Part shown: positions 1 to 43,926 of the stretch, one piece after another
Layout of the letters: every line of letters begins with the position of its first letter
Numbering within the stretch: the stretch's first letter is position 1
DNA from: Escherichia phage Bp7
Strand: one strand, 5' to 3'
DNA length: 64,000 nt
Sequence record: NC_019500.1
Position numbers and translations under genes: made by a program
Notes under the pieces: generated by a model
What the model was told of the DNA's origin: nothing
The model's database searches: none
Seen by the model: only the letters and a program-made list of their open reading frames with translations

Positions 1-507
1 CCTAACTATGTTTGTGACTGGACGTCGTTGCGGGAAGACTTGGCTAAACATGGCATCCGTAATAGCACATTATCAGCACTTATGCCGTGTGAATCAAGCA
101 GCCAGGTTTCCAACTCTACAAACGGTATCGAACCTCCACGTGGTCCGGTAAGTATTAAAGAATCTAAAGAAGGTAACTTCCGTCAGGTAGTTCCTAATGT
201 AGAACATAACCAAGGACTCTACGATTACGCTTGGAGCCTCGCTAAGAAAGGTAATAAACCTTATCTTACCCAAGTGGCAATAGCGTTGAAATGGGTGTGT
301 CAATCGGCATCAGCTAATACATATTATGACCCACAGATTTTTCCAAAAGGAAAAGTTCCGATGTCGGTAATGCTTGATGACCTGCTGTATTTCTGGTACT
401 ACGGTGGTAAGAACCTTTACTATCATAATACCCGTGATGGCTCTGGTACTGATGACTATGAAATCGAAACTCCTAAAGCCGATGATTGTGCAGCTTGTAA
501 GCTTTAA
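1..507 (+). CDS. nrdA: Ribonucleotide reductase large subunit NrdA, C-terminal part (gene continues upstream of window)
   Basis: Frame-1 ORF open from window edge; C-terminus ...DDYEIETPKADDCAACKL resembles class Ia NrdA C-terminal Cys pair; synteny immediately upstream of nrdB. Confidence 0.8.
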   Translation, partial: PNYVCDWTSLREDLAKHGIRNSTLSALMPCESSSQVSNSTNGIEPPRGPVSIKESKEGNFRQVVPNVEHNQGLYDYAWSLAKKGNKPYLTQVAIALKWVCQSASANTYYDPQIFPKGKVPMSVMLDDLLYFWYYGGKNLYYHNTRDGSGTDDYEIETPKADDCAACKL

Positions 508-561: not shown

Positions 562-1236
562 ATGTCTACAGTTTTTAATACTACCCCAGTTGATGTTTTA
601 GTCGAGCCGATGTTCTTTGGTTCAGGATTAGGTATCGCCCGTTATGATATCCAACGTCATAAAGTGTTCGAAGAGCTTTGTGAAAAGCAACTATCATTTT
701 TCTGGCGTCCAGAGGAAGTTAACTTGATGATGGACTCTGCGCAGTTAATAAGCTTCCAGAGTTCCAACAAAATATATTTACCAATAACTTGAAATATCAG
801 TCGCTTTTGGACAGTATTCAGGGCCGGGCTCCTTCTGCTGCACTCCAAGCCTTGATTTCTGACCCTAGCCTTGATACATGGGTGGCAACATGGACCTTTA
901 GTGAAACTATTCACTCGCGTTCGTATACCCATATCATGCGTAACCTCTATACAGACCCATCTAAGGTATTTGATGAAATTCTGTTAGATGACGCTATCAT
1001 GAAGCGCGCTGAATCCATTGGTCGTTATTATGATGACGTTATTGAGAAAACTAGATATTGGCAGAATGCTAAAGCTGATATTGAGTACCAAAAAGAAATT
1101 AACGCAGACGAAGATGATATTGAAGATGCCATAGAGCATGAGATGTATTGGAAACGTGAACTGATGCGTTCTCTTTATCTCTGTTTGCATGTTATCAATG
1201 CCTTAGAAGCTATTCGTTTTTATGTATCTTTTGCGT
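562..1236 (+). CDS. nrdB: Ribonucleotide reductase small subunit NrdB, exon 1 (apparent 1-nt frameshift near 745)
   Basis: [12 protein letters not shown]...EEVNLMMD in frame 1 then continues in frame 3 (...[21 protein letters not shown]...[12 protein letters not shown]); matches T4/E. coli NrdB; exon ends at T1236. Confidence 0.8.
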
Positions 1237-1310
1237 AAAATGCGCCTTTAAACGGTAACGTTTATCGAAAACTCCTTTAATTGCTGGAAAGTCCTTTATA
1301 GGAAAACTAG

Positions 1311-1337
1311 CAGCCAAGGTTTTGCTTGCACCTTTAA
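1311..1337 (+). promoter_or_regulatory. Putative middle promoter (MotA box TTTGCTTGCA, 11 nt, TATAAT) inside intron upstream of endonuclease ORF
   Basis: Sequence motif match to T4 middle promoter consensus. Confidence 0.45.
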
Positions 1338-1381
1338 TTAGTATAATATAAATATGATTATACTTTTAAGAGGATGCACAA

Positions 1382-2188
1382 TTGAACTATAGAAAAATTT
1401 GGATAGATGCTAACGGACCTATACCTAAAGATTCTGATGGAAGAACATACGAAATCCATCATAAAGACGGTAACCGTGAAAATAATGATTTAGATAATTT
1501 GATGTGCCTTTCTATACAGGAACATTATGATATACATTTAGCTCAAAAAGATTACCAGGCTTGTCATGCTATAAAGCTTAGAATGAAATATTCTCCTGAA
1601 GAAATTTCTGAATTAGCTTCTAAAGCCGCAAAATCTAGAGAAATCCAGATTTTTAATATCCCTGAAGTACGAGCTAAAAATATTGCCTCTATTAAATCTA
1701 AGATAGAAAATGGTACATTTCATCTTTTAGACGGTGAAATACAGCGTAAATCTAATTTAAATAGAGTTGCATTAGGTATACATAATTTCTCTAGAGGAGC
1801 CCATGCAAAAGTTAAAGAACGCAATATTGCAGCTATAAAAGAAGGTACTCATGTATTTTGCGGTGGTAAAATGCAGTCAGAAACTCAATCAAAACGGGTA
1901 AATGACGGTTCACATCATTTCTTGTCAGAAGACCATAAGAAAAGAACATCAGCAAAAACATTAGAAATGGTTAAGAACGGGACCCATCCTGCACAAAAAG
2001 AAATCACATGTGATTTCTGCGGTCACATTGGTAAAGGTCCTGGATTTTATCTAAAACATAATGACAGATGTAAATTAAATCCAAATAGAATTCAATTGAA
2101 TTGTCCATATTGTGATAAGAAAGATTTATCACCATCAACATATAAACGATGGCACGGCGACAATTGCAAAGCAAGGTTCAACGACTAG
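1382..2188 (+). CDS. Intron-encoded HNH homing endonuclease (I-TevIII-like), TTG start
   Basis: 268 aa; EIHHKDGNRENNDLDNLMCLSIQEHYDIH HNH motif; C-terminal Cys/His zinc-finger-like pairs; RBS aagagga upstream of TTG. Confidence 0.75.
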   Translation: MNYRKIWIDANGPIPKDSDGRTYEIHHKDGNRENNDLDNLMCLSIQEHYDIHLAQKDYQACHAIKLRMKYSPEEISELASKAAKSREIQIFNIPEVRAKNIASIKSKIENGTFHLLDGEIQRKSNLNRVALGIHNFSRGAHAKVKERNIAAIKEGTHVFCGGKMQSETQSKRVNDGSHHFLSEDHKKRTSAKTLEMVKNGTHPAQKEITCDFCGHIGKGPGFYLKHNDRCKLNPNRIQLNCPYCDKKDLSPSTYKRWHGDNCKARFND

Positions 2189-2324
2189 TCTTCGGACGTA
2201 GGGTCAAGCGACTCGAAATGGGGAGAATCCCTCTGGGATTGTGATATAGTCTGGTCTGCATAGTAATATGTAGCAGTTCATAAGAGAACGGGTTGAGAAT
2301 TAGCGAGCTCAATCGAACATAACG

Positions 2325-2827
2325 GTACCTTTAACTTCCATAAGAACATGGAAATCATGGAAGGTAATGCTAAGATTATGAAGTTCATTGCACGTGATGA
2401 ACAGCTCCACCTTAAAGGCACCCAGTACATTATTCGTCAGCTCCAACTTGGTACTGATGGCGACGAATGGGTTAAAATTGCTCAAGAGTGCGAACAAGAA
2501 GCAGTTGATATTTTCATGGAAGTTAACCGTCAAGAAAAAGAATGGGCCGCTCACCTGTTCAAAGATGGTACTTGCCCTGGATTAAATACTCAGAACATGG
2601 GTGCTTTTGTCGATTACCTGACAGTTTCTCGTATGAAGCAATGTGGCTTACCGTGTCCTATTACTGATGCTCCTACTCGCCATCCTTATCCTTGGATTCG
2701 CGAATACCTGAACTCTGATGCTGTACAGGCTGCTCCTCAGGAAGTGGAAATCAGTTCTTACCTTGTAGCACAAATTGATAACGATGTTGATGAAAAAGTA
2801 ATGGCATCGTACAAGAAATATTTTTAA
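2325..2827 (+). CDS. nrdB: Ribonucleotide reductase small subunit NrdB, exon 2
   Basis: TFNFHKNMEIMEGNAKIMKFIARDEQLHLKGTQ... to C-terminus; matches NrdB iron-ligand region. Confidence 0.8.
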
Positions 2828-8525: not shown

Positions 8526-9067
8526 AAGCAAGCACATACCTTCAGATTGCATATCTGATTTCTCAGGAATCAAAATGTTGTTCATGGAAAGTGGGCGCGG
8601 TTATTGAAAAGAATGGCCGCATTATTTCTACAGGGTATAACGGTTCACCATCCGGTGGTGTTAACTGTTGTGACCACGCTGTGGAACAAGACTGGACCCG
8701 TGTTGTGTATGACCCAGCGCGGATGTCGCACAAATCCGTTCTTCTTAAAGAACACCGTATGGCTCATGCAGCATGGTCATCCAAAAATGAAATCCATGCT
8801 GAACTGAATGCCATTTTGTTTGCAGCTCGTACCGGAAGTTCTATTGACGGCGCTACGATGTACGTGACGTTATCTCCATGTGCAGATTGTGCTAAGTCTA
8901 TTGCGCAGTCTGGAATTAAAACATTGGTTTATGCTGAGCTATATGACCGAAATCCTGAAGGATGGGACGATATCCTCCGTGAATCAGGCATAGAAGTTAT
9001 CCAGTATAATCGTACAGGTCTCCGTTCTCTGAACTGGGAATCAATTCAAAACTATTGTGGTGAATAA
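8522..9067 (+). CDS. cd: dCMP deaminase
   Basis: HAELNAILFAARTG and SPCADCAKSI zinc-ligand motifs of cytidine/dCMP deaminase; N- and C-termini match T4 Cd. Confidence 0.9.
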   Translation: MKASTYLQIAYLISQESKCCSWKVGAVIEKNGRIISTGYNGSPSGGVNCCDHAVEQDWTRVVYDPARMSHKSVLLKEHRMAHAAWSSKNEIHAELNAILFAARTGSSIDGATMYVTLSPCADCAKSIAQSGIKTLVYAELYDRNPEGWDDILRESGIEVIQYNRTGLRSLNWESIQNYCGE

Positions 9068-9339
9068 TGAAATTTCGTCTAGTTAAATTTTCAGGTCTGA
9101 ACTCAAAAGGTGAAAGCTTAGTAGCCTATTCAGTAGAATATAAAAAGTACTTTTTCTCTCGATGGAAATCGTACTATAAATCTGATTGGGTTTATGCCAA
9201 CATGAATTACAAAACAGTACCTATTCTTGATAATTGCCATAGCCTATTAAGAGCTCTAAAAGAGCGTAACGCAACCACTATCAAAACTATCTGGAATAAT
9301 TATGATTTTAACCGAACAAGAAACAATTCGTCTCCGTGA
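9067..9339 (+). CDS. Hypothetical protein
   Basis: 90 aa ORF. Confidence 0.45.
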   Translation: MKFRLVKFSGLNSKGESLVAYSVEYKKYFFSRWKSYYKSDWVYANMNYKTVPILDNCHSLLRALKERNATTIKTIWNNYDFNRTRNNSSP

Positions 9340-15574: not shown

Positions 15575-17659
15575 ATGACCGAACAATTAAATGAAGTGTT
15601 TGAGTCCGAAGGCACACTGCCTACAGTAAACTTGAACCCAAAACTTAAAGTACCCCAGATTTGGAAGATTGGTGACGCAGAATCCCAATTAGTGGCGCGT
15701 ATGGTATCCTACGCTTCTGAAGGTGATGCTATTAAACAGGTTAAGATGGGTGATAAATATGCCCACGTTATCCTTATGAGCCTTTCAGCTAAAGGTTCGC
15801 CTGCCGAACTTAAAGGTGGCCTAGGCCCTACTCCCGTAGATGCGATTAATACTATTTTTGATGTGGTTTATGACCAAGTTAAAAAGCTTCGTATGGATGC
15901 CGTGATGTTCCGTTTCCCTACTAAGAAAATGAAAGGTCAAGGCCCTATCGTTCAACGGATTATCCAACGTTTGGTAGCACAGAAAACAGGTGGACGTTTT
16001 AAAGTAGTTCCGGCTATGTACCAATTTACCGGTAAACATACTTATATCCTAGTAGTTCGTAAACAGGCTGATATCGAAGATATCAAAGGTATGCCAGGAA
16101 TTAATGCCGAATTATACACTAAGGTAGATTCTGATGTCGGTGAAGTTTATATTTCTAAAAAAGAAGGCGTGCAGGTTACTAAAGAAACTGCTATTGCCGG
16201 CAGTATTGCTAAAGTTGAAGAACGTCGCACTGATAAAATGGTTATAACCAAGACTAAGATTTCTCGTCGTGCCATTGCAGCAAGTCAATCGTTAGAATCT
16301 TATCGTAATGAAAGTGAACTGTTTAAGAAATATGAAGCAAATGCCGTAGATTTTAATAAACCTGCAACAGCTCCATTAATCCCTGAGGCCCAGGAAATGG
16401 TTACTAATAACAATTCTCCCGCGGCTAAAAATAAGGTTGCTAATATAGTAGCTGAAGGTACTGCTGAAGAATTGCATTATGATTATAAAATGTTTCCTCT
16501 TCACGGTATAGGTGAAATCCAAGAGAAAATTAAAGATAAAATTCTTGCGGCCATCAAAAACGAACCTTTGACATCTGTTAAAGCTCTAGAAAAATATGCC
16601 TCTGCTATTAATACCGTTTTCGAAGAATACAAAGGTGAATGGCTGGCCCGGCATAACAAAACTCGTAAAGGCCAACCTGACGACCTCTGGAATGAATTGA
16701 CCGATGCGAAGTGGAAAGCCGCCAAGACCAAGTTCATTAAAAAACGTGTATATAGTTTTGCCGGTGTAGGTGGCGGTATTATGGTCGATATTACTATTGC
16801 TCGTGAGGGCTCTAAATATACCCCATCACAAAAGCGCGGCATCAGAGAATATTGTGGCTCAGGATATACAGACATAAATAATCTTCTTTTAGGACGCTAT
16901 AACCCTCAGAACTATGAGGTTATGGGCGAAAAAGATATCGAATCTGCAGTTAATAATTTGGATTCTGCTTTTGAAAATGGCGACCGTATACCAGAAGGCA
17001 TCACAGTTTATCGTGCACAGAGTATGACTGCTCCTATATACGAAGCACTAGTTAAAAATAAAGTGTTCTATTTCAGAAATTTTGTATCCACTTCATTGAC
17101 TCCTATCATTTTTGGACGTTTTGGTGTTACACACGCCGGTATCGGTCTTTTAGAACCGGAAGTTCGCGATGAATTGACAGTCGATAAAAATGAAGAAGGA
17201 ATAACTATTAATCCTAATGAAATAAGAGCATATAAAGAAAATCCTGATTATGTTAAAGTTCAAATAGGATGGGCTATTGATGGGGCTCATAAAGTTAATG
17301 TCGTATATCCAGGAAATCTCGGAATAGAAACTGAAGCCGAAGTTATTCTACCGCGTGGATTAATGGTCAAAGTTAATAAAATAACAGATGCTTCTAATAA
17401 TGATGGAACAACATCTAGTAATACAAAACTCATCCAAGCTGAAGTTATGACAACAGATGAGCTTCAAGAATCTGTGGTATATGATGGTGACGTACTAATG
17501 GAAACCGGCGAGTTGGTCGTATATAAAGATGACTTCGATACTTCCGAAAGCCCTGTATCTTTTGATTCATTTGTTAAATCTACACGGTTTGATGTATTGC
17601 CTCTTTTGGCTTCATGCATAGACCTCTATGACATCCCAGAAAAATTCATCCAAGGGTAA
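15575..17659 (+). CDS. alt: ADP-ribosyltransferase Alt (copy 1)
   Basis: 694 aa; C-terminal ART domain (RGIREYCGSGYTDINNLL..., YRAQ..., FVSTS); size and position match T4 Alt. Confidence 0.85.
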   Translation: MTEQLNEVFESEGTLPTVNLNPKLKVPQIWKIGDAESQLVARMVSYASEGDAIKQVKMGDKYAHVILMSLSAKGSPAELKGGLGPTPVDAINTIFDVVYDQVKKLRMDAVMFRFPTKKMKGQGPIVQRIIQRLVAQKTGGRFKVVPAMYQFTGKHTYILVVRKQADIEDIKGMPGINAELYTKVDSDVGEVYISKKEGVQVTKETAIAGSIAKVEERRTDKMVITKTKISRRAIAASQSLESYRNESELFKKYEANAVDFNKPATAPLIPEAQEMVTNNNSPAAKNKVANIVAEGTAEELHYDYKMFPLHGIGEIQEKIKDKILAAIKNEPLTSVKALEKYASAINTVFEEYKGEWLARHNKTRKGQPDDLWNELTDAKWKAAKTKFIKKRVYSFAGVGGGIMVDITIAREGSKYTPSQKRGIREYCGSGYTDINNLLLGRYNPQNYEVMGEKDIESAVNNLDSAFENGDRIPEGITVYRAQSMTAPIYEALVKNKVFYFRNFVSTSLTPIIFGRFGVTHAGIGLLEPEVRDELTVDKNEEGITINPNEIRAYKENPDYVKVQIGWAIDGAHKVNVVYPGNLGIETEAEVILPRGLMVKVNKITDASNNDGTTSSNTKLIQAEVMTTDELQESVVYDGDVLMETGELVVYKDDFDTSESPVSFDSFVKSTRFDVLPLLASCIDLYDIPEKFIQG

Positions 17660-19714
17660 ATGATGGAAAATTTAAACGAAGTTTTTGATAGCGATTCCGC
17701 TAAAAACTATCCAGTAATAAATCTTAAACCAGGTTCCGGTATCCCACAGATTTTCTCTATTAAAGCACCGGGTAATGATAACCTGGTTGCTCGTATGGTA
17801 TCTTATGCGTCTCAAGGAGACGCTATTAAAATGGTTAAGCCGGGCGACAAATATGTCCACGTTATTCTAATGAGTTTGTCAAGCAAGGGTGCTCCGGCTG
17901 AACTCAAAGGTGGTCTTGGTTCTGACCCACTCGGTACGCTGAATACCATTTTTGATACTGTATACGAACAAGTAAACAAACTTAAAATGGATGCGGTTTT
18001 ATTCCGTTTCCCTACCAAGAAAATGAAAGGTAAGGGCCCTACTGTTCAGCGTGTATTAGCTCGTTTGGCTATGGCTCGTACTGGTGGTAAGTTTAAAGTT
18101 GTTGATGCCATGTACCAATTCACTGGAAAACATACCTATGTTCTTTTAGTACGTCGTGGCACTAATATTGAAGATATCAAGGGTATGCCTGAAATTGATG
18201 CCGAACTTTATACTAAGGTTGAGTCCAAAGTTGGCGAAGTTTATGTTTCTAAGGAAACCGGCCAGTCCGTAAGTAAGGCCGAAGCTGTCTCGGCAAGTAT
18301 AGCTAAGGTTGAAGAGAAACGTACTGATAAGGCCGTCATTACCAAGACTAAGATTTCTCGTCGTGCTATTGCTATGTCGCAATCCTTAGAATCGTCACGA
18401 TTTGAAACTCCTATGTTTAAGAAATTTGATTCTAATGCTGCTGAATTGAATAAACCGGCTACGGCTCCTTTAATGTCAGAAGCAAATGAAATAAAGGTTA
18501 TTTCTAATTCTTTCTTGGCTTTAGAAAATACCATTAGTGCTAATACTGGTGGTATGTCGTTTAAAGACAACCTTCTTATTCCAGAAGATAAAATGGAAGA
18601 AATTAATACCGACATAAAAATGAGAGCTTTTGAGAAATTACATGGATTAAATGTGACTTCAGTAAAAGCCCTAGAAAATTATGCTTCAGTGGTTGATGAC
18701 GTCATCGAAGAATATAAAGGTCCTTGGCTTCAAAAGCTAATGGCTCAACATTCACACCTAGGTTATCACGAAGCAGTCGAGTTGGCTGAAAATTCTTGGA
18801 ATGCTATAAAGACCAAAATTATTCAACGTGAGCTGCGTGTTTACGCTCTTACCGCCGGTTGGCAATTGCATTCTATTATAGAAAATAAAGACGCGTCTCG
18901 TTATACTCCTGCCCAGAAACGTGGTATTCGTGAATATGTTGGCTCCGGTTACGAAGATATGAATAATGTTCTTTTAGGTCTCCATGACCCGAATGTAAGA
19001 AGCAGTATTCTGACTAATGAAGACATAGAAAAAGCTATCAATAACTTAGATTCTGCTTTTGAAAATGGCGAACGTCTACCACCAGGTATTACTCTTTATC
19101 GTTCCCAACGAATGATTCCTGATATTTACTTGGCTATGATTAGCAATAAAGTATTCTATTTCAGAAACTTTGTTTCAACTGCGATATATCCGAATATTTT
19201 TGGTACATGGATGACTGATTCTGGTGTTGGTCTTTTGCCTGACGAAAAACGTCGTGATGTTGCATTAGACAAATCGGATGAAGGTTTAGTATATTCGAAT
19301 AAAGATACTTTAGTAGGTATTGGTTGGGCCTTTACCGGTACAGATAAGGTAAATGTCGTTTTACCTGGTGGAGACTTGGCTCCTTCTAACGAAATGGAAG
19401 TAATTCTTCCTAGGGGTTTGATGGTCAAAATCAATAAAATTACAGATGCTTCATACAATAACGGAACTACTCGTTCTAACAATAAGTTCGTTCAAGCCGA
19501 AGTAATGACTGCAGACGAACTTAATGAAGCCGTGGTGTACGATGGTGATGCTCTGATGGAAACAGGCGAACTAGTTGTCTATAAAGAGGGTAATGAGCTT
19601 TCTTTTGATTCTTTTGTTTCTAATGAGAAGAAAAAGAAATCAGACAGAGGTCTTGGCTTGTTAGCTTCTTGTATAGATATCGACGCTCTCCAGTATAAAT
19701 TTGTACAAGGGTAG
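17660..19714 (+). CDS. ADP-ribosyltransferase Alt paralog (copy 2)
   Basis: 684 aa; collinear similarity to copy 1 along full length (e.g. RMVSYAS.GDAIK, RGIREYVGSGYEDMNNVLLG). Confidence 0.85.
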   Translation: MMENLNEVFDSDSAKNYPVINLKPGSGIPQIFSIKAPGNDNLVARMVSYASQGDAIKMVKPGDKYVHVILMSLSSKGAPAELKGGLGSDPLGTLNTIFDTVYEQVNKLKMDAVLFRFPTKKMKGKGPTVQRVLARLAMARTGGKFKVVDAMYQFTGKHTYVLLVRRGTNIEDIKGMPEIDAELYTKVESKVGEVYVSKETGQSVSKAEAVSASIAKVEEKRTDKAVITKTKISRRAIAMSQSLESSRFETPMFKKFDSNAAELNKPATAPLMSEANEIKVISNSFLALENTISANTGGMSFKDNLLIPEDKMEEINTDIKMRAFEKLHGLNVTSVKALENYASVVDDVIEEYKGPWLQKLMAQHSHLGYHEAVELAENSWNAIKTKIIQRELRVYALTAGWQLHSIIENKDASRYTPAQKRGIREYVGSGYEDMNNVLLGLHDPNVRSSILTNEDIEKAINNLDSAFENGERLPPGITLYRSQRMIPDIYLAMISNKVFYFRNFVSTAIYPNIFGTWMTDSGVGLLPDEKRRDVALDKSDEGLVYSNKDTLVGIGWAFTGTDKVNVVLPGGDLAPSNEMEVILPRGLMVKINKITDASYNNGTTRSNNKFVQAEVMTADELNEAVVYDGDALMETGELVVYKEGNELSFDSFVSNEKKKKSDRGLGLLASCIDIDALQYKFVQG

Positions 19715-28175: not shown

Positions 28176-28403
28176 TTAGAAATCTTCCTCTTCCTCGTCG
28201 TCCATCGACTCCAATTCAGCTCTCTTACCAGCCAATGCATCACGCACGCTAATATCATCCGAATCACGAAGTTCGGCTTCCTTACTACGAGTTTTGTAAT
28301 ACTTTTCCAATTCCTTCAGACCATCCATAGTCTGACAAGAACCAATTTTAGCCATGAAGCTTTCAATAGATGCTTCCTGAATAACTTCTTTAAAGGTTTT
28401 CAT
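28176..28403 (-). CDS. uvsW.1: UvsW.1
   Basis: 75 aa acidic C-terminus, located downstream of uvsW as in T4. Confidence 0.6.
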   Translation of the reverse strand: MKTFKEVIQEASIESFMAKIGSCQTMDGLKELEKYYKTRSKEAELRDSDDISVRDALAGKRAELESMDDEEEEDF

Positions 28404-29182
28404 AATATTTCCTCGAAAAATTTGGTAACCATTTTACCGTAATGCACATTAGGATAACCGGCTTTAATGGCTTCTTTTGTAAATTTACCAACTTTAAGCT
28501 TTCCTGTATTTATCCAAAGCTCTTTAAGCTCATCATACATTAACCAGTGTGGATATTTCTTAGCCAAAGTAGCTTGCCAATTTTTAGAATGGTCCTCAGA
28601 CCTAAACGATTTCTTTACACCTTTATTGGCTTTGCCAGCTTTTGAACACGTTTCATAATCTCCGGCTTTAATAGGTGTAAATCCTTTCATTGCTTTAGAC
28701 CTTTTGGCTATGGTCTCTTTGGATTGCTTGGAGCCTTTATTTTTGGTCCAAGCCTTTTCTAAAGCTTTTAATTTGGCTTCTGTTAATCCAACTTTAGCCA
28801 TAGCTTTTCGGTGTATTTCTCTTCGTTCATCAGTCCATTCATAAGAACCGTTTGTATTACCAATCATGGCTTCGCTTATTAATCTAGAAGCATTTTCTTT
28901 TAAAATGGAAATAGACCTAGAGCTTATCTCATTTAATCTTTTGCCACATGTCATACCAAATGCGGCACGCCATAATTTTCCACCTTGAGCTTTAGCCAAG
29001 ATTATATGGCCCAAAATATGTTCCCTAATAGTCAATGCAACTAAATTGTTAGGGTCATCGGAACCACCTATCGACTTAGGAATAATATGATGAATTTCGA
29101 TTTTACAGGGCGCAGTAGCTTTGGTCCATCCTCTGGACCTAGCATTCTCTATTAAATCATCGTAAATTTTCTGATAATTCAA
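28400..29182 (-). CDS. HNH homing endonuclease (free-standing, between uvsW and uvsW.1)
   Basis: 260 aa; HHIIPKSIGGSDDPNNLVALTIREH HNH motif; overlapping start/stop with neighbours. Confidence 0.75.
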   Translation of the reverse strand: MNYQKIYDDLIENARSRGWTKATAPCKIEIHHIIPKSIGGSDDPNNLVALTIREHILGHIILAKAQGGKLWRAAFGMTCGKRLNEISSRSISILKENASRLISEAMIGNTNGSYEWTDERREIHRKAMAKVGLTEAKLKALEKAWTKNKGSKQSKETIAKRSKAMKGFTPIKAGDYETCSKAGKANKGVKKSFRSEDHSKNWQATLAKKYPHWLMYDELKELWINTGKLKVGKFTKEAIKAGYPNVHYGKMVTKFFEEIL

Positions 29183-30682
29183 AGCTGCACCTCTTTCATA
29201 ACATAATTAAATTTCTCGTCGGCGTATCGTTGTATACGTTCCAATCCATGTTTCAGGCAATAATTTAAATGAACATATTTCTTTTTAGAATCTTTAGATT
29301 TAGGGCGGACTCCCATATCATCCACGAGGTCCCAGACTTGGGCCACTTGTTTGCTATCGTGCTTACGTAGAACACGCCCAATTGTTTGCAGAACAATGAT
29401 TTTAGATTTTACGCCGTGAGCAAATACAACGTGGTGAAGGTTCTTAACGGAAATACCAGTAGAGAACACACCATAACTTGCCACAACAATAATACCCTTA
29501 CCATTTTCCGCCATTACTTTCAGAGCATTACGCGTTTCGGTATTAACTTCACCTGATACGTAATAAACTTCTTTATGTTGCTCTTTAACCATTTCAAAAA
29601 GAGTTTTACCGTGTTCGATGTTTTTAAACATCAGGAATACGTTCTCTTCTTTCTTAGCGAGTTTAACAGCTAAATTAGCAACCCATTTATTACGACGAGT
29701 AGCCTTAGTAATGACCTTGATTTCTGATTGGTAATCTTTACCTTTCATCTTAACAGTGAATTCGTCTGGGTATCGAAGGAAAATACTGTTGATTTTAAGG
29801 TCGGTAACCTGTCCTTCTTCCATTAACTGGGAAGTGGATACCGGCTTAAACACATCACCAAACAAACCCATATATTGCATTAAATTAGCTTTACCATCTT
29901 TTAAAGAACCAGACAAACCGAATTTAAACATACAGTTGGTTAGGCCTTCGATGATAGTAGAAATAGATTTACCTGTAGCCAAATGGCATTCGTCGTTCAT
30001 AAACATACCGAACTGAGCAAACCATTCTTTAGGTTGCTTGATAGCAGTTTGATAAGTTGAAACGTAAATCATTGCATCAGAATCACGAGCAGTACCTGAA
30101 CGAATACCAAGCATTGCTGCTTTAGGGAACAATCGATAATCGATGAAGTCATTAATCATCTGGTCGACAAGTGCAGTAGTAGGAACCAGAATAAGGATTT
30201 TACCTTCATAGTTCTCAACGTAATATCGACTCAGGAGCGCCTGGATTAATGATTTACCTGCGGATGTAGGTAAATTCAGAATTGCACGACGTTTTGTCAG
30301 GCCGTTGTATACGGCTTCATTCTGATACCAATGAGGCTCAATCTTGGTAGACCCTGAATAAATTTCTTGAGAAGCTACCCATGAATCAAAATCTTCACGA
30401 GAAATATCTTCCTGTTCAAGAATACGCGGGTCAATCCACAGAGAATATTCAAATTGTTCAGCGAACTTTTTAATTTGAGGGACAAGTCCATAAGGGCAAG
30501 TTTACGGCAGTTACGTAATCTAGAAGAAGAAGACTTCCATCCCATTGCCCATAACGAAATTTAGGGTTGAATTTATATCCATCGGCTTCAAAGCTAAAAT
30601 AGTCTCTGAGTTCGTAGAATGTGGATTCATCACACTCAATACGAACATGACTAAAATTATCGAAATGTACTTGAATTTGCAT
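29179..30682 (-). CDS. uvsW: DNA/RNA helicase UvsW (apparent 1-nt frameshift near 30490)
   Basis: N-terminus MQIQVHFDNFSHVRIECDESTFYELRDYFSFEADGYKFNPKFRYGQWDG; after frame change continues ...PYGLVPQIKKF...LPTSAGKS...DECH...QTIGRVLR; matches T4 UvsW in two frames. Confidence 0.8.
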
Positions 30683-32291: not shown

Positions 32292-32581
32292 CATTAAAGT
32301 ACAAAATTCCTGTTTACAAGGACTCTAGTCTATGTTAAGATGGGTTTACCAACTCAACGAGAGAATTGTTATGGATAAGGTTAAAGTACATTTTTTACAC
32401 GAATCCGGGTTGAATTTTATAGAAATTGCTAAAAAAATGGGCGGGACCGCTAAGGATATGGCCAAAGCATGGGTTGATGTAGAACAAGCCTAGAGCCAAA
32501 TTTAAAGCGAAAGAAAAGGTTGTTTATCGTAAAAGATTGAACAACAAGGTTCGGCGCAAAGCGCGTTCTGGTTCAAAGTAA

Positions 32582-40201: not shown

Positions 40202-40446
40202 TATTCGTCGTCCTCGTCATCATCCGCATCGTCAGATTCTTTTTTGTCTTTCTTATCTGCTTTATCGGATTTTTCGTCGTCTTCGTCATCTTCGTCAGCT
40301 TCTTCGCCTTCAATCATAACGGAGCGAGCAATTTCTGCTTTACGGGCTTCAATCAAAGCGGTTACTCGAGATTCGATAAGCGGGGCTGCTGCTTTACGAA
40401 CTGCTACGAGGTCGTTTGATTTAATAGCTTCGATTAAATCTTCCAT
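40201..40446 (-). CDS. 67: Prohead core protein gp67
   Basis: 81 aa with poly-acidic C-terminus; synteny. Confidence 0.75.
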
Positions 40447-42019
40447 TAGAAATCCTCTTCTTCTTCATCTGGGTTTTGGAAACGAGCCTCTTTAGACTCT
40501 TCTTCAATTTGCTTAGCTTCTTGATTAATTTCTTCGTCGGTCATTTGGAGGAAATCTTTCATAGCCGTTTGATGTGAAATGTACTTACCAATAAATGGTT
40601 CAGCCATCGTTAGCATATTGATTCTGCGTTCCATGATTTCAGCATCTTTCATTTCACTGAAATAGCTATCACGGTTAAACGTAACTTTAATATTATTTAT
40701 TTCCTTTTCCCACTCATCTTCTGTAATAATCTTTTTAAGAATGAGGTTTGTTTTTAACGGGTCTAGGAAAATTTCTTCAAATTTGTTTTGTAGTTGACGA
40801 ATCCATTTAGAGAATTTTAATTCGTCACGAGTGATTGCTGTACCGGCATCAAACATAACACCAGAATTAGACTCGCTAGGGATACGTGATTCAGGAACAC
40901 GCAACGCACGGTAAAGTGCTGTGCGGAAATAAAGAACGTCATCCATATCACTCATACCAGTAGCACCTGGCATTGTATCAACTTCTGTTACCGCTTTACC
41001 ATCACGACGTTGCAACCAATAGTCTTCAGTCATGGACATATTGTGTTGTTGGTTTTTAATTTTACCTGTCGAAGCATCATACACCACACGGTTTTTCATC
41101 GTGTTCATGATATGTTGCATTTGTGCTGCAGCCTTACGTGAAGGCATATTACCTGTATCGATATAAAACACACGACGGTCAGGAGCACGTGTAATACGGT
41201 AGATGACCATTGCGTCTTCCATCAATTTAAGCTGGTTTGCAGGCTTAATAGCACGTTGCAAATAGCCAATGATGTTTTTACCACAACAATCTAATAATCC
41301 AGAATGAGCATAAACCACTGCAGCACGAGGAATTTTAACTTTAGTCCCGGCTGAATAAATGCGTCCATCTGCGCAATAGCTTTCATGACCTGTGTCGTAA
41401 ACGAAAAACTCGCGATATCCGTCTACAACTTTAACGCCATCTTCCATACGTGTAACGATTTCACGAATATATTGGACTTGGCGTGGGTCTAAGCGACGAA
41501 GCTCTTGTACGCCATCTTTCATTTTTTTAGGGTTTATAATTTTATGAAAGAAAATTCTTGAGTCTACATACCAGCGTTGGAAATGGTCAGTGCCTTTACG
41601 TTGGAAATTTAAAAGGTTTAAAACTTCACTGAATTCGGCCAAGATTTTATCTTTAATTGCTTGACTAAATTCTGTCCCGTCTAAATTCAATGCAACTACT
41701 TCTTTATCATCTCATAGACAATAGCGTCAGACACAATTTCCTGTACGGCGTTGTCGACTTCATAGTTGTTCATTAAATTACGGTAGGTATCAATAAGTTC
41801 CCTGGTATTTTTAACTTCAGGCTCATTACTACCAAACATCTGTTGCATAAGAGCATTATAAGGAATATTTTGCTCTTGTGTCTCAATTTCGCGAGCGCCA
41901 TCATCAAGCTTAGGTGCGGTGACAGACTCTAAATTGTTATTAATTTGTTGTTTGAATTCTTTTTCGTCTTCATTAGCCCATGGCTTAAGAAAACTTAATA
42001 TTGTATTAAAGTTTGCCAT
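40446..42019 (-). CDS. 20: Portal vertex protein gp20 (apparent 1-nt frameshift near 41711)
   Basis: Two adjacent ORFs (41696..42019 and 40446..41690) together match T4 gp20 end to end; break falls between ...[10 protein letters not shown] and [11 protein letters not shown]. Confidence 0.85.
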
Positions 42020-42076: not shown

Positions 42077-42658
42077 TCATTCATTTTCATGTTTGTGATA
42101 ACGTGTTATAGCCGAACGAGTTGATTCAACACCACAGATAGGGCAAATCATCCTTGGCTGATTAATCTTTTTGCCTTTAGCCGGATGTTCTTTACCAAAC
42201 ATCGGATTACCTTCACCAGACATAGCTTTGGCTTGGTCTGGTCGCTTACGTCCTTTTAGAGCTTTAGAATGTTCAGGCCTCTTTTTACCTAACCTACAAT
42301 CTCTTTGTAGCTGTTTGGCATGTTCACTCATTGGAATCCCTTTACGAGACATTCCAAAGAACCCGTCAGGCTGAGCTAATGACATATTTATATAGTTTTT
42401 AGATTTAACTACATTATACTTTATTTGAAGCTCTTTCTCAGCTATACGAGCTTCTTTATCGGTTTCAAATAAAGATAAAATTCTGGTTTTGAAAAGGTGC
42501 GGATTTTCTTTACGTTCTAGATTCCAAATCTTTTTATATGCTTGGGATAATACAGAACCATTATATCCTTCTTTGAGAATCCTTTCAACGTATGTTGAGC
42601 CAATATAACGACGGGGTAGTTTAGACCCCGTGTATATGGTTAAGTAAGTACAATACAT
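42077..42658 (-). CDS. GIY-YIG homing endonuclease (Seg-like), free-standing between genes 19 and 20
   Basis: 193 aa; N-terminal TYLTIYTGS...RRYIGST GIY-YIG motif; Lys/Arg-rich DNA-binding C-terminus. Confidence 0.7.
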   Translation of the reverse strand: MYCTYLTIYTGSKLPRRYIGSTYVERILKEGYNGSVLSQAYKKIWNLERKENPHLFKTRILSLFETDKEARIAEKELQIKYNVVKSKNYINMSLAQPDGFFGMSRKGIPMSEHAKQLQRDCRLGKKRPEHSKALKGRKRPDQAKAMSGEGNPMFGKEHPAKGKKINQPRMICPICGVESTRSAITRYHKHENE

Positions 42659-43254: not shown

Positions 43255-43926
43255 TCATGATAGTTTTCCATTTGGTTGTTTTGATTCAATCATATTTATA
43301 AGAGTTTTTAAGCTCATCCCACAGCCATCTGATTTGGAAAGATTTTCTTCCCACGGAATAATTTGCAAGTTACAAATATGGCCTATATGTTCTGCGGGTA
43401 TTTTATTATCATAACCAAATTTCTTAGATATTATATGGTCTAATTGATAAGCACCTTTGACTCCGCACTTGCCTATTTTAGTAAAATTCTTCATTTTACT
43501 TATTTCATTTCTATATTTATACTGATGACGCTTGACATCCATACAATATTTATGATATTTTTTCTTATCAATCCAGTGTTCTTTAGATTTGAGACCTTTA
43601 CCTGTTCTATTTTTGGAAATTTTAGGCCCTTTGGTTTTACGGATTTTTATGCCTTCATCAGAATTCCAATATTCTTTTCTTGTTTCTGAATAGACTTCCC
43701 AGCGATGTTCTTTACAGAACTTAGAATTTGTTTCATTAAGACGTCCTTTTGTTACAGTATAATAAGTGCCACATTTATCACATTTACATGTAACAGCAAT
43801 TTTTCCAGGACAATCTTCTAATTTTATTAAATGAGAGCTTCCACTTTTAACTTGATATCCGAGATTTTTAAAAGCAGAAACATTGCGATTCGTTATAGGT
43901 ATTTCAAATAGAGTATTAGTAATCAT
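43255..43926 (-). CDS. HNH homing endonuclease, free-standing between genes 18 and 19
   Basis: 223 aa; QLDHIISKKFGYDNKIPAEHIGHICNLQIIPWEENLSK HNH motif; Cys-rich N-terminus. Confidence 0.7.
   Translation of the reverse strand: MITNTLFEIPITNRNVSAFKNLGYQVKSGSSHLIKLEDCPGKIAVTCKCDKCGTYYTVTKGRLNETNSKFCKEHRWEVYSETRKEYWNSDEGIKIRKTKGPKISKNRTGKGLKSKEHWIDKKKYHKYCMDVKRHQYKYRNEISKMKNFTKIGKCGVKGAYQLDHIISKKFGYDNKIPAEHIGHICNLQIIPWEENLSKSDGCGMSLKTLINMIESKQPNGKLS

Follow-up and report, generated by a model that had tools for sequence, protein, structure and literature searches.

The nrdB frameshift of Escherichia phage Bp7: a probable sequence error in a gene carrying an RB3-type group I intron

The nrdB gene of phage RB3 and of the T4 family, split by a self-splicing group I intron that encodes I-TevIII, has in common with the nrdB gene of Escherichia phage Bp7 the gene itself, the site of the intron, directly behind the T in the Cys codon that comes after ...RFYVSFA, and a full-length HNH endonuclease. 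Bp7 differs from RB3 in that its nrdB lies in a Dhakavirus genome, has an exon 1 that is one base short and contains a unique 18-nt patch in the endonuclease I-TevIII. In T4, nrdB is dispensable, as the host NrdAB substitutes for it, and loss of nrd genes is tolerated, with dNDPs supplied by the host enzyme. If the deletion in Bp7 were real, it would cause the same tolerated loss of the small subunit of the phage ribonucleotide reductase (RNR) as in the nrdA and nrdB mutants of T4; the latter are laboratory mutants, whereas the Bp7 allele is known from the deposited sequence alone.

Two further systems are comparable to this locus. Split-CDS artefacts of early phage deposits, a descriptive class and not a curated family, resemble Bp7 in the loss of single bases from homopolymers, in the occurrence of several events, including one in an essential gene, in the naming of the halves after the parent gene and in fragments that are singletons in protein databases. 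Sites of programmed −1 frameshifting, such as those of E. coli dnaX and of the phage tail-chaperone genes G/GT, share with Bp7 nrdB overlapping frames that jointly encode one protein, but the slippery heptamer, the downstream structure and the conservation of such sites are absent from Bp7 nrdB.

The window analyzed here is the whole stretch of 64,000 nucleotides of the record NC_019500.1; GenBank HQ829472 / RefSeq NC_019500 is the genome record of Bp7. In megablast comparisons, the window showed 92–95% identity to the JS98-like Dhakaviruses E33, IME281 and JS98, and none of the records in the phage collection searched was identical to it. The limits of nrdB exon 1 were set by alignment to JS98 and WFL6982 and by the two-piece nrdB of RB3, with the intron in the same place. 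The features of the locus and the other frame breaks of the window are listed in Table 1.

Table 1. Features of the nrdB locus and positions of other record-specific frame breaks in the 64-kb window of phage Bp7
Feature	Position	Strand	Details
nrdA 3' end (RNR large subunit)	28..507	+	ORF list; matches annotated nrdA of JS98, E33 and AnYang
nrdB exon 1	562..1236	+	675 nt here, 676 nt in RB3
Frame-1 ORF, 76 aa	562..792	+	GenBank AEN93893.1
Missing-base site, Phe62 codon	745..746	+	TT here; TTT or TTC in relatives
Exon 1 remainder, open in frame 3	747..1236	+	In GenBank from TTG 789, AEN93894.1, 149 aa
Group I intron, RB3 nrdB type	1237..2324	+	99.1–99.2% identity over 1088 nt
I-TevIII homing endonuclease ORF	1382..2188	+	268 aa (269 in RB3), TTG start; Pfam HNH_3, 48.7 bits
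nrdB exon 2	2325..2827	+	Continues the frame of the exon 1 remainder
Gene 31.2 break	9290 (gene 9067–9339)	+	One T of TT lost, two codons upstream of the stop
uvsW break	30494..30516 (gene 29179–30682)	-	Untidy net +7-nt insertion
Gene 24.3 break	32491..32495 (gene 32332–32578)	+	AAG to TAG and one extra base
Portal gene 20 break	41711 (gene 40446–42019)	-	Loss of 1 nt (coding strand GG to G)

The nrdB gene of Bp7 is a normal T-even gene of the β-subunit of class Ia ribonucleotide reductase with an intron of the RB3 type. Its first exon ends at T1236, the first base of the Cys codon T-GT that the intron splits. The frame-1 ORF, starting from ATG 562, encodes 61 native residues of NrdB (MSTVF...) followed by 15 out-of-frame residues and is terminated by TGA at 790–792, so that the deposited gene, after splicing, has no single continuous reading frame. 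An ORF starting from ATG 2348 in exon 2 is annotated in GenBank as AEN93896.1 (159 aa). Accordingly, nrdB is represented in the GenBank record of Bp7 by three separate CDSs, of 76, 149 and 159 aa, and in this form the frameshift is already visible in the public record.

The site at 745–746 reads CAG-TT-AAT in Bp7 and CAG-TTT/TTC-AAT in 13 distinct related genomes and contigs. In DNA alignments, the Phe62 codon is TTT in JS98, E33, AnYang, RB3 and G2469, and TTC in WFL6982; a single gap, located in this codon, was found in each of the alignments with JS98, WFL6982, RB3, G2469 and E33. The sequence CAGTTAATAAGCTT at 742–755 occurs once in the window, and the deletion-bearing forms of the site, as deposited, are CAGTTAATAAG and CAGTTAAT. 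The length of the spliced nrdB CDS is 1178 nt, compared with 1179 nt in E33, LHE83, AnYang, WFL6982, G2469 and RB3. A compensating indel was considered and rejected, since the spliced CDS is exactly 1 nt short and the frames never rejoin.

The original prediction had placed a switch of NrdB from frame 1 to frame 3 at 740–792, and both its content and its coordinates agree with the frame translations and alignments. It had further proposed the absence of one T from CAGTT(T)AATAAGCTT; addition of one T indeed produces an uninterrupted NrdB of 392 aa, which aligns end-to-end with E. coli R2 (1piy, E = 5e-126). The label 'exon 1' was likewise correct, the gene being split by the RB3-type group I intron.

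The rest of the gene is intact. The repaired spliced product of 392 aa matches the Pfam family Ribonuc_red_sm (PF00268) with 125 bits at a cut-off of 33.6, while the 76-aa ORF as deposited has no Pfam match. All di-iron ligands and the tyrosyl radical residue, D84, E115, H118, Y122, E204, E238 and H241 (E. coli numbering), are conserved; all of them are encoded downstream of the frameshift, and none is present in the 76-aa product. Downstream of the shift, 49.5 synonymous and 5.5 non-synonymous differences from E33 were counted (pN/pS 0.02–0.03), and exon 2 differs from that of E33 by 12 synonymous changes and 1 non-synonymous change. The signs of a decaying pseudogene are absent from nrdB, which carries just one lesion and shows no relaxed constraint. 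If real, the deletion would be very recent.

The deletion was found only in the Bp7 record. The intact version of the site, 44 nt in length, is present in 15 of 15 related loci, belonging to 13 distinct genomes and contigs, compared with 43 nt in Bp7. An indel-tolerant pattern was run over IMG/VR, the JGI metagenomes and the GTDB genomes. It matched the deletion-bearing version nowhere; the intact version was matched 7 times in IMG/VR together with the JGI metagenomes, and not at all in the GTDB genomes. With the repaired exon-1 protein as query, 8000 homologues were retrieved, the best 120 of which were inspected; the motif AQFNKLP, as AQFNKLPQ[YF]QQ, is kept in all 120. A frame structure shared with relatives or inherited from an ancestor was rejected as an explanation, since solely intact versions were found in the metagenome and genome scans and among these 120 best homologues.

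Exact look-ups of protein products gave the same picture. The NrdB products of 76, 149 and 159 aa were found only in the Bp7 record, a single contig of 168,066 bp, as were I-TevIII of 268 aa (AEN93895.1), the portal fragment of 107 aa (AEN93953.1), the UvsW fragment of 70 aa (AEN93939.1) and gp24.3 of 53 aa (AEN93942.1). When the products of 76 aa and 268 aa were looked up by exact sequence, no other contig representing an independent assembly of the Bp7 nrdB allele was found, and the contigs carrying the exact DenA of Bp7 are intronless or too short.

A real deletion could in principle be compatible with full-length NrdB if the protein were produced by programmed −1 frameshifting or other recoding in the overlap at 722–792. 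Frames 1 and 3 overlap there by about 70 nt, a slip at AAC-AAA-A (766–772) would yield NrdB of native length, and recoding is known in T-even phages, in particular the bypassing in gene 60. Against this, no in-frame slippery heptamer X-XXY-YYZ is present in the overlap (codons of 721–792 were read), and the invariant motif FNKLP would not survive a slip at any point downstream of 747. The RNA of the region 748–870 has a folding energy of −21 kcal/mol compared with a mean of −23.05 for shuffled sequences (z = +0.64), with 143 of 200 shuffles folding at least as well. Moreover, the 13 distinct related sequences and the 120 best homologues of 8000 all use a single frame. Recoding at this site is therefore extremely improbable.

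The deletion is located at the 5' edge of a divergent patch at 744–812, which holds 8 of the 13 changes unique to Bp7 in nrdB. Five of these 8 are synonymous and one is non-synonymous, namely 759 C to G, resulting in Q66E, at a position occupied by Q in 120 of the 120 best homologues of 8000. As the changes in the patch are mostly synonymous, they look more like genuine divergence than poor base calling; on the same grounds, locally low-quality sequence around the deletion is not supported. The composition of the patch suggests a recombinant segment from an unsampled nrdB allele or donor.

This mosaic structure is one argument for the alternative that nrdB of the Bp7 stock had very recently acquired a spontaneous null mutation, which might have arisen in the recombination that brought the intron or the adjoining foreign patch. 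Such a phage would produce only the 76-aa fragment without iron ligands or tyrosyl radical, with its dNTP supply provided through host NrdAB. The product ends before D84, E115, H118 and Y122, which would make the allele a clean null; the deletion borders a patch of mostly synonymous Bp7-unique changes, and nrdB has clearly recombined, with bases of the Mosigvirus type around the intron site (CDS 611–695). Since nrdB is non-essential in T4, a real null allele is not forbidden, unlike a break in gene 20. Speaking against a null mutation are the lack of a second lesion and of relaxed constraint downstream (pN/pS 0.03), the intact state of the intron and I-TevIII, and the absence of the deletion from every relative and metagenomic contig examined. 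These data, together with the other breaks of the record described below, make a null mutation unlikely, and an error is the simpler explanation, given an impossible break in gene 20 and several untidy ones.

Frame breaks were surveyed by comparing the proteins of JS98 and E33 with the window in tblastn, and all indels were catalogued. Four more record-specific breaks were found within the 64 kb, in genes 20, uvsW, 24.3 and 31.2. Gene 20 is split into ORFs of 107 aa and about 414 aa. The corresponding region is 301 nt long in Bp7 and 302 nt long in 12 of 12 relatives among the matches listed (46 relatives matched); 30 of the 46 matched relatives are at least 99% identical, and the gap is the sole difference from IME341. 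The insertion in uvsW resembles a garbled near-duplication of CGTAAACTGCC, leaving an N-terminal ORF of 70 aa, with the helicase body in a different frame. Gene 24.3 is truncated at codon 41 of 69, giving the 53-aa product. Gene 31.2 is lengthened to 90 aa and runs over the start of 31.1; this 90-aa product is absent from the protein collection, so the depositors must have annotated 31.2 differently. Three of the five breaks are of one kind, with a short homopolymer reduced by one base (TTT to TT in nrdB, GG to G in gene 20 and TT to T in gene 31.2).

Gene 20, encoding the portal protein, is essential in T4. Bp7 is a propagated, plaque-forming phage, for which studies of host range and receptors have been published (PMC10987938). 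The break in gene 20 therefore cannot be real, and, accordingly, the deposit contains indel errors.

Two other candidates were rejected in the survey. The tetranucleotide CTAG is present in the odd patches at 1788–1806, 30519–30524 and 32490–32495, but engineering or amber mutants were not accepted as its cause, because CTAG is common in the window (83 sites); the CTAG in uvsW is not an in-frame stop. The stop codon of gp54, considered as a further break, proved to be the native one of an intact gene.

Judged from this context, the frameshift in nrdB is most probably a sequencing or assembly error, and as a feature it is best classed as not real. This explanation is favored because it accounts for the uniqueness of the deletion, for the single lesion and for the accompanying errors in the record; the other breaks, including that of an essential gene in a viable phage, and the scrambled 18-nt patch in I-TevIII favor an artefact for nrdB as well and make a real mutation less likely. 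We infer that the nrdB deletion belongs to the same class of errors as the other record-specific breaks. One T would have been lost from the TTT run at 745–746 in base calling or assembly, and in the real phage an exon 1 of 676 nt and exon 2 would be spliced into an mRNA of 1179 nt, encoding NrdB of 392 aa. Counting against an error is the position of the deletion next to the divergent patch, where the local sequence is not obviously of low quality. The original prediction had offered two alternatives, an indel introduced in sequencing or assembly and a genuine mutation that inactivates nrdB, itself dispensable; both stand, with the weight now on the artefact. It had also named alignment to nrdB of close relatives as a check, and by this alignment the frame structure was found in no relative.

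The main significance of the locus lies in annotation quality. In the Bp7 record, NrdB is represented by three proteins, and the portal protein and UvsW are split; the fragments have since entered UniRef and nr, where they form singleton 'families'. The splits of Bp7 are suspect until resequencing, which matters for the use of the record as a Dhakavirus reference and for counts of pseudogenes and frameshifts in T4-like phages. If the deletion were true, a mobile intron with its homing endonuclease would reside in a newly dead dispensable gene, and a freshly intron-invaded nrdB would be dead in a successful broad-host-range phage, a small data point.

The solid biology of this locus is the presence of an RB3-type intron in a Dhakavirus with a short donor-type exon tract, rather than the frameshift. 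The intron has the identity given in Table 1 to the nrdB introns of RB3, G2469, JK45 and many Tequatro- and Mosigviruses, and outside the endonuclease ORF it is 100% identical to that of RB3. Its insertion site is as annotated in RB3, and the sequences on either side agree with the exon junctions of RB3. The Rfam model Intron_gpI was matched with 34 bits (E = 1.3e-6), below the gathering cut-off of 50, and only by the 3' core at 2033–2273; the match is partial and below the cut-off because the large ORF insertion splits the model.

The I-TevIII ORF is that of RB3 with the exception of an 18-nt patch and one further substitution. In the patch, at 1788–1806, TCTCTAGAGGAGCCCATG replaces TTCAACAAGCTGAGCATATTG, with 11 substitutions and a loss of 3 nt, changing QQAEHIA to SRGAHA and including an XbaI site (TCTAGA). 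No template for the patch was found in the 64-kb window, and no match in IMG/VR; the patch may have originated by error or by micro-conversion.

Bp7 is a Dhakavirus with an nrdB intron of the RB3 type; E33, JS98, AnYang, LHE83 and LQ5, the relatives closest to it, are intronless. Bases of the type of the intron donor (Mosigvirus) flank the insertion site at about 1172–1236 and 2325–2344 of the window, corresponding to CDS 611–695. Co-conversion in homing would be expected to leave such flanks.

Other variable features were also found in the window. Three extra ORFs, absent at these places from E33 and JS98, are located on the minus strand at 28400–29182, 42077–42658 and 43255–43926. The first, located immediately downstream of uvsW, encodes an HNH endonuclease (26.7 bits against Pfam HNH). 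Between genes 20 and 19 lies the second, a SegE/GIY-YIG-like ORF with a weak Pfam match, named in the sources as a homing endonuclease. The third, an ORF of 223 aa between genes 19 and 18, has no Pfam match. The breaks in uvsW and gene 20 lie about 1.3 kb and about 0.4 kb, respectively, from two of these insertions. The variable region at 15575–19711 contains two paralogues of alt, encoding ADP-ribosyltransferase, compared with three in E33; one of the copies is 97% identical to the middle copy of E33, and the other is 41–55% identical to any copy of E33 or JS98.
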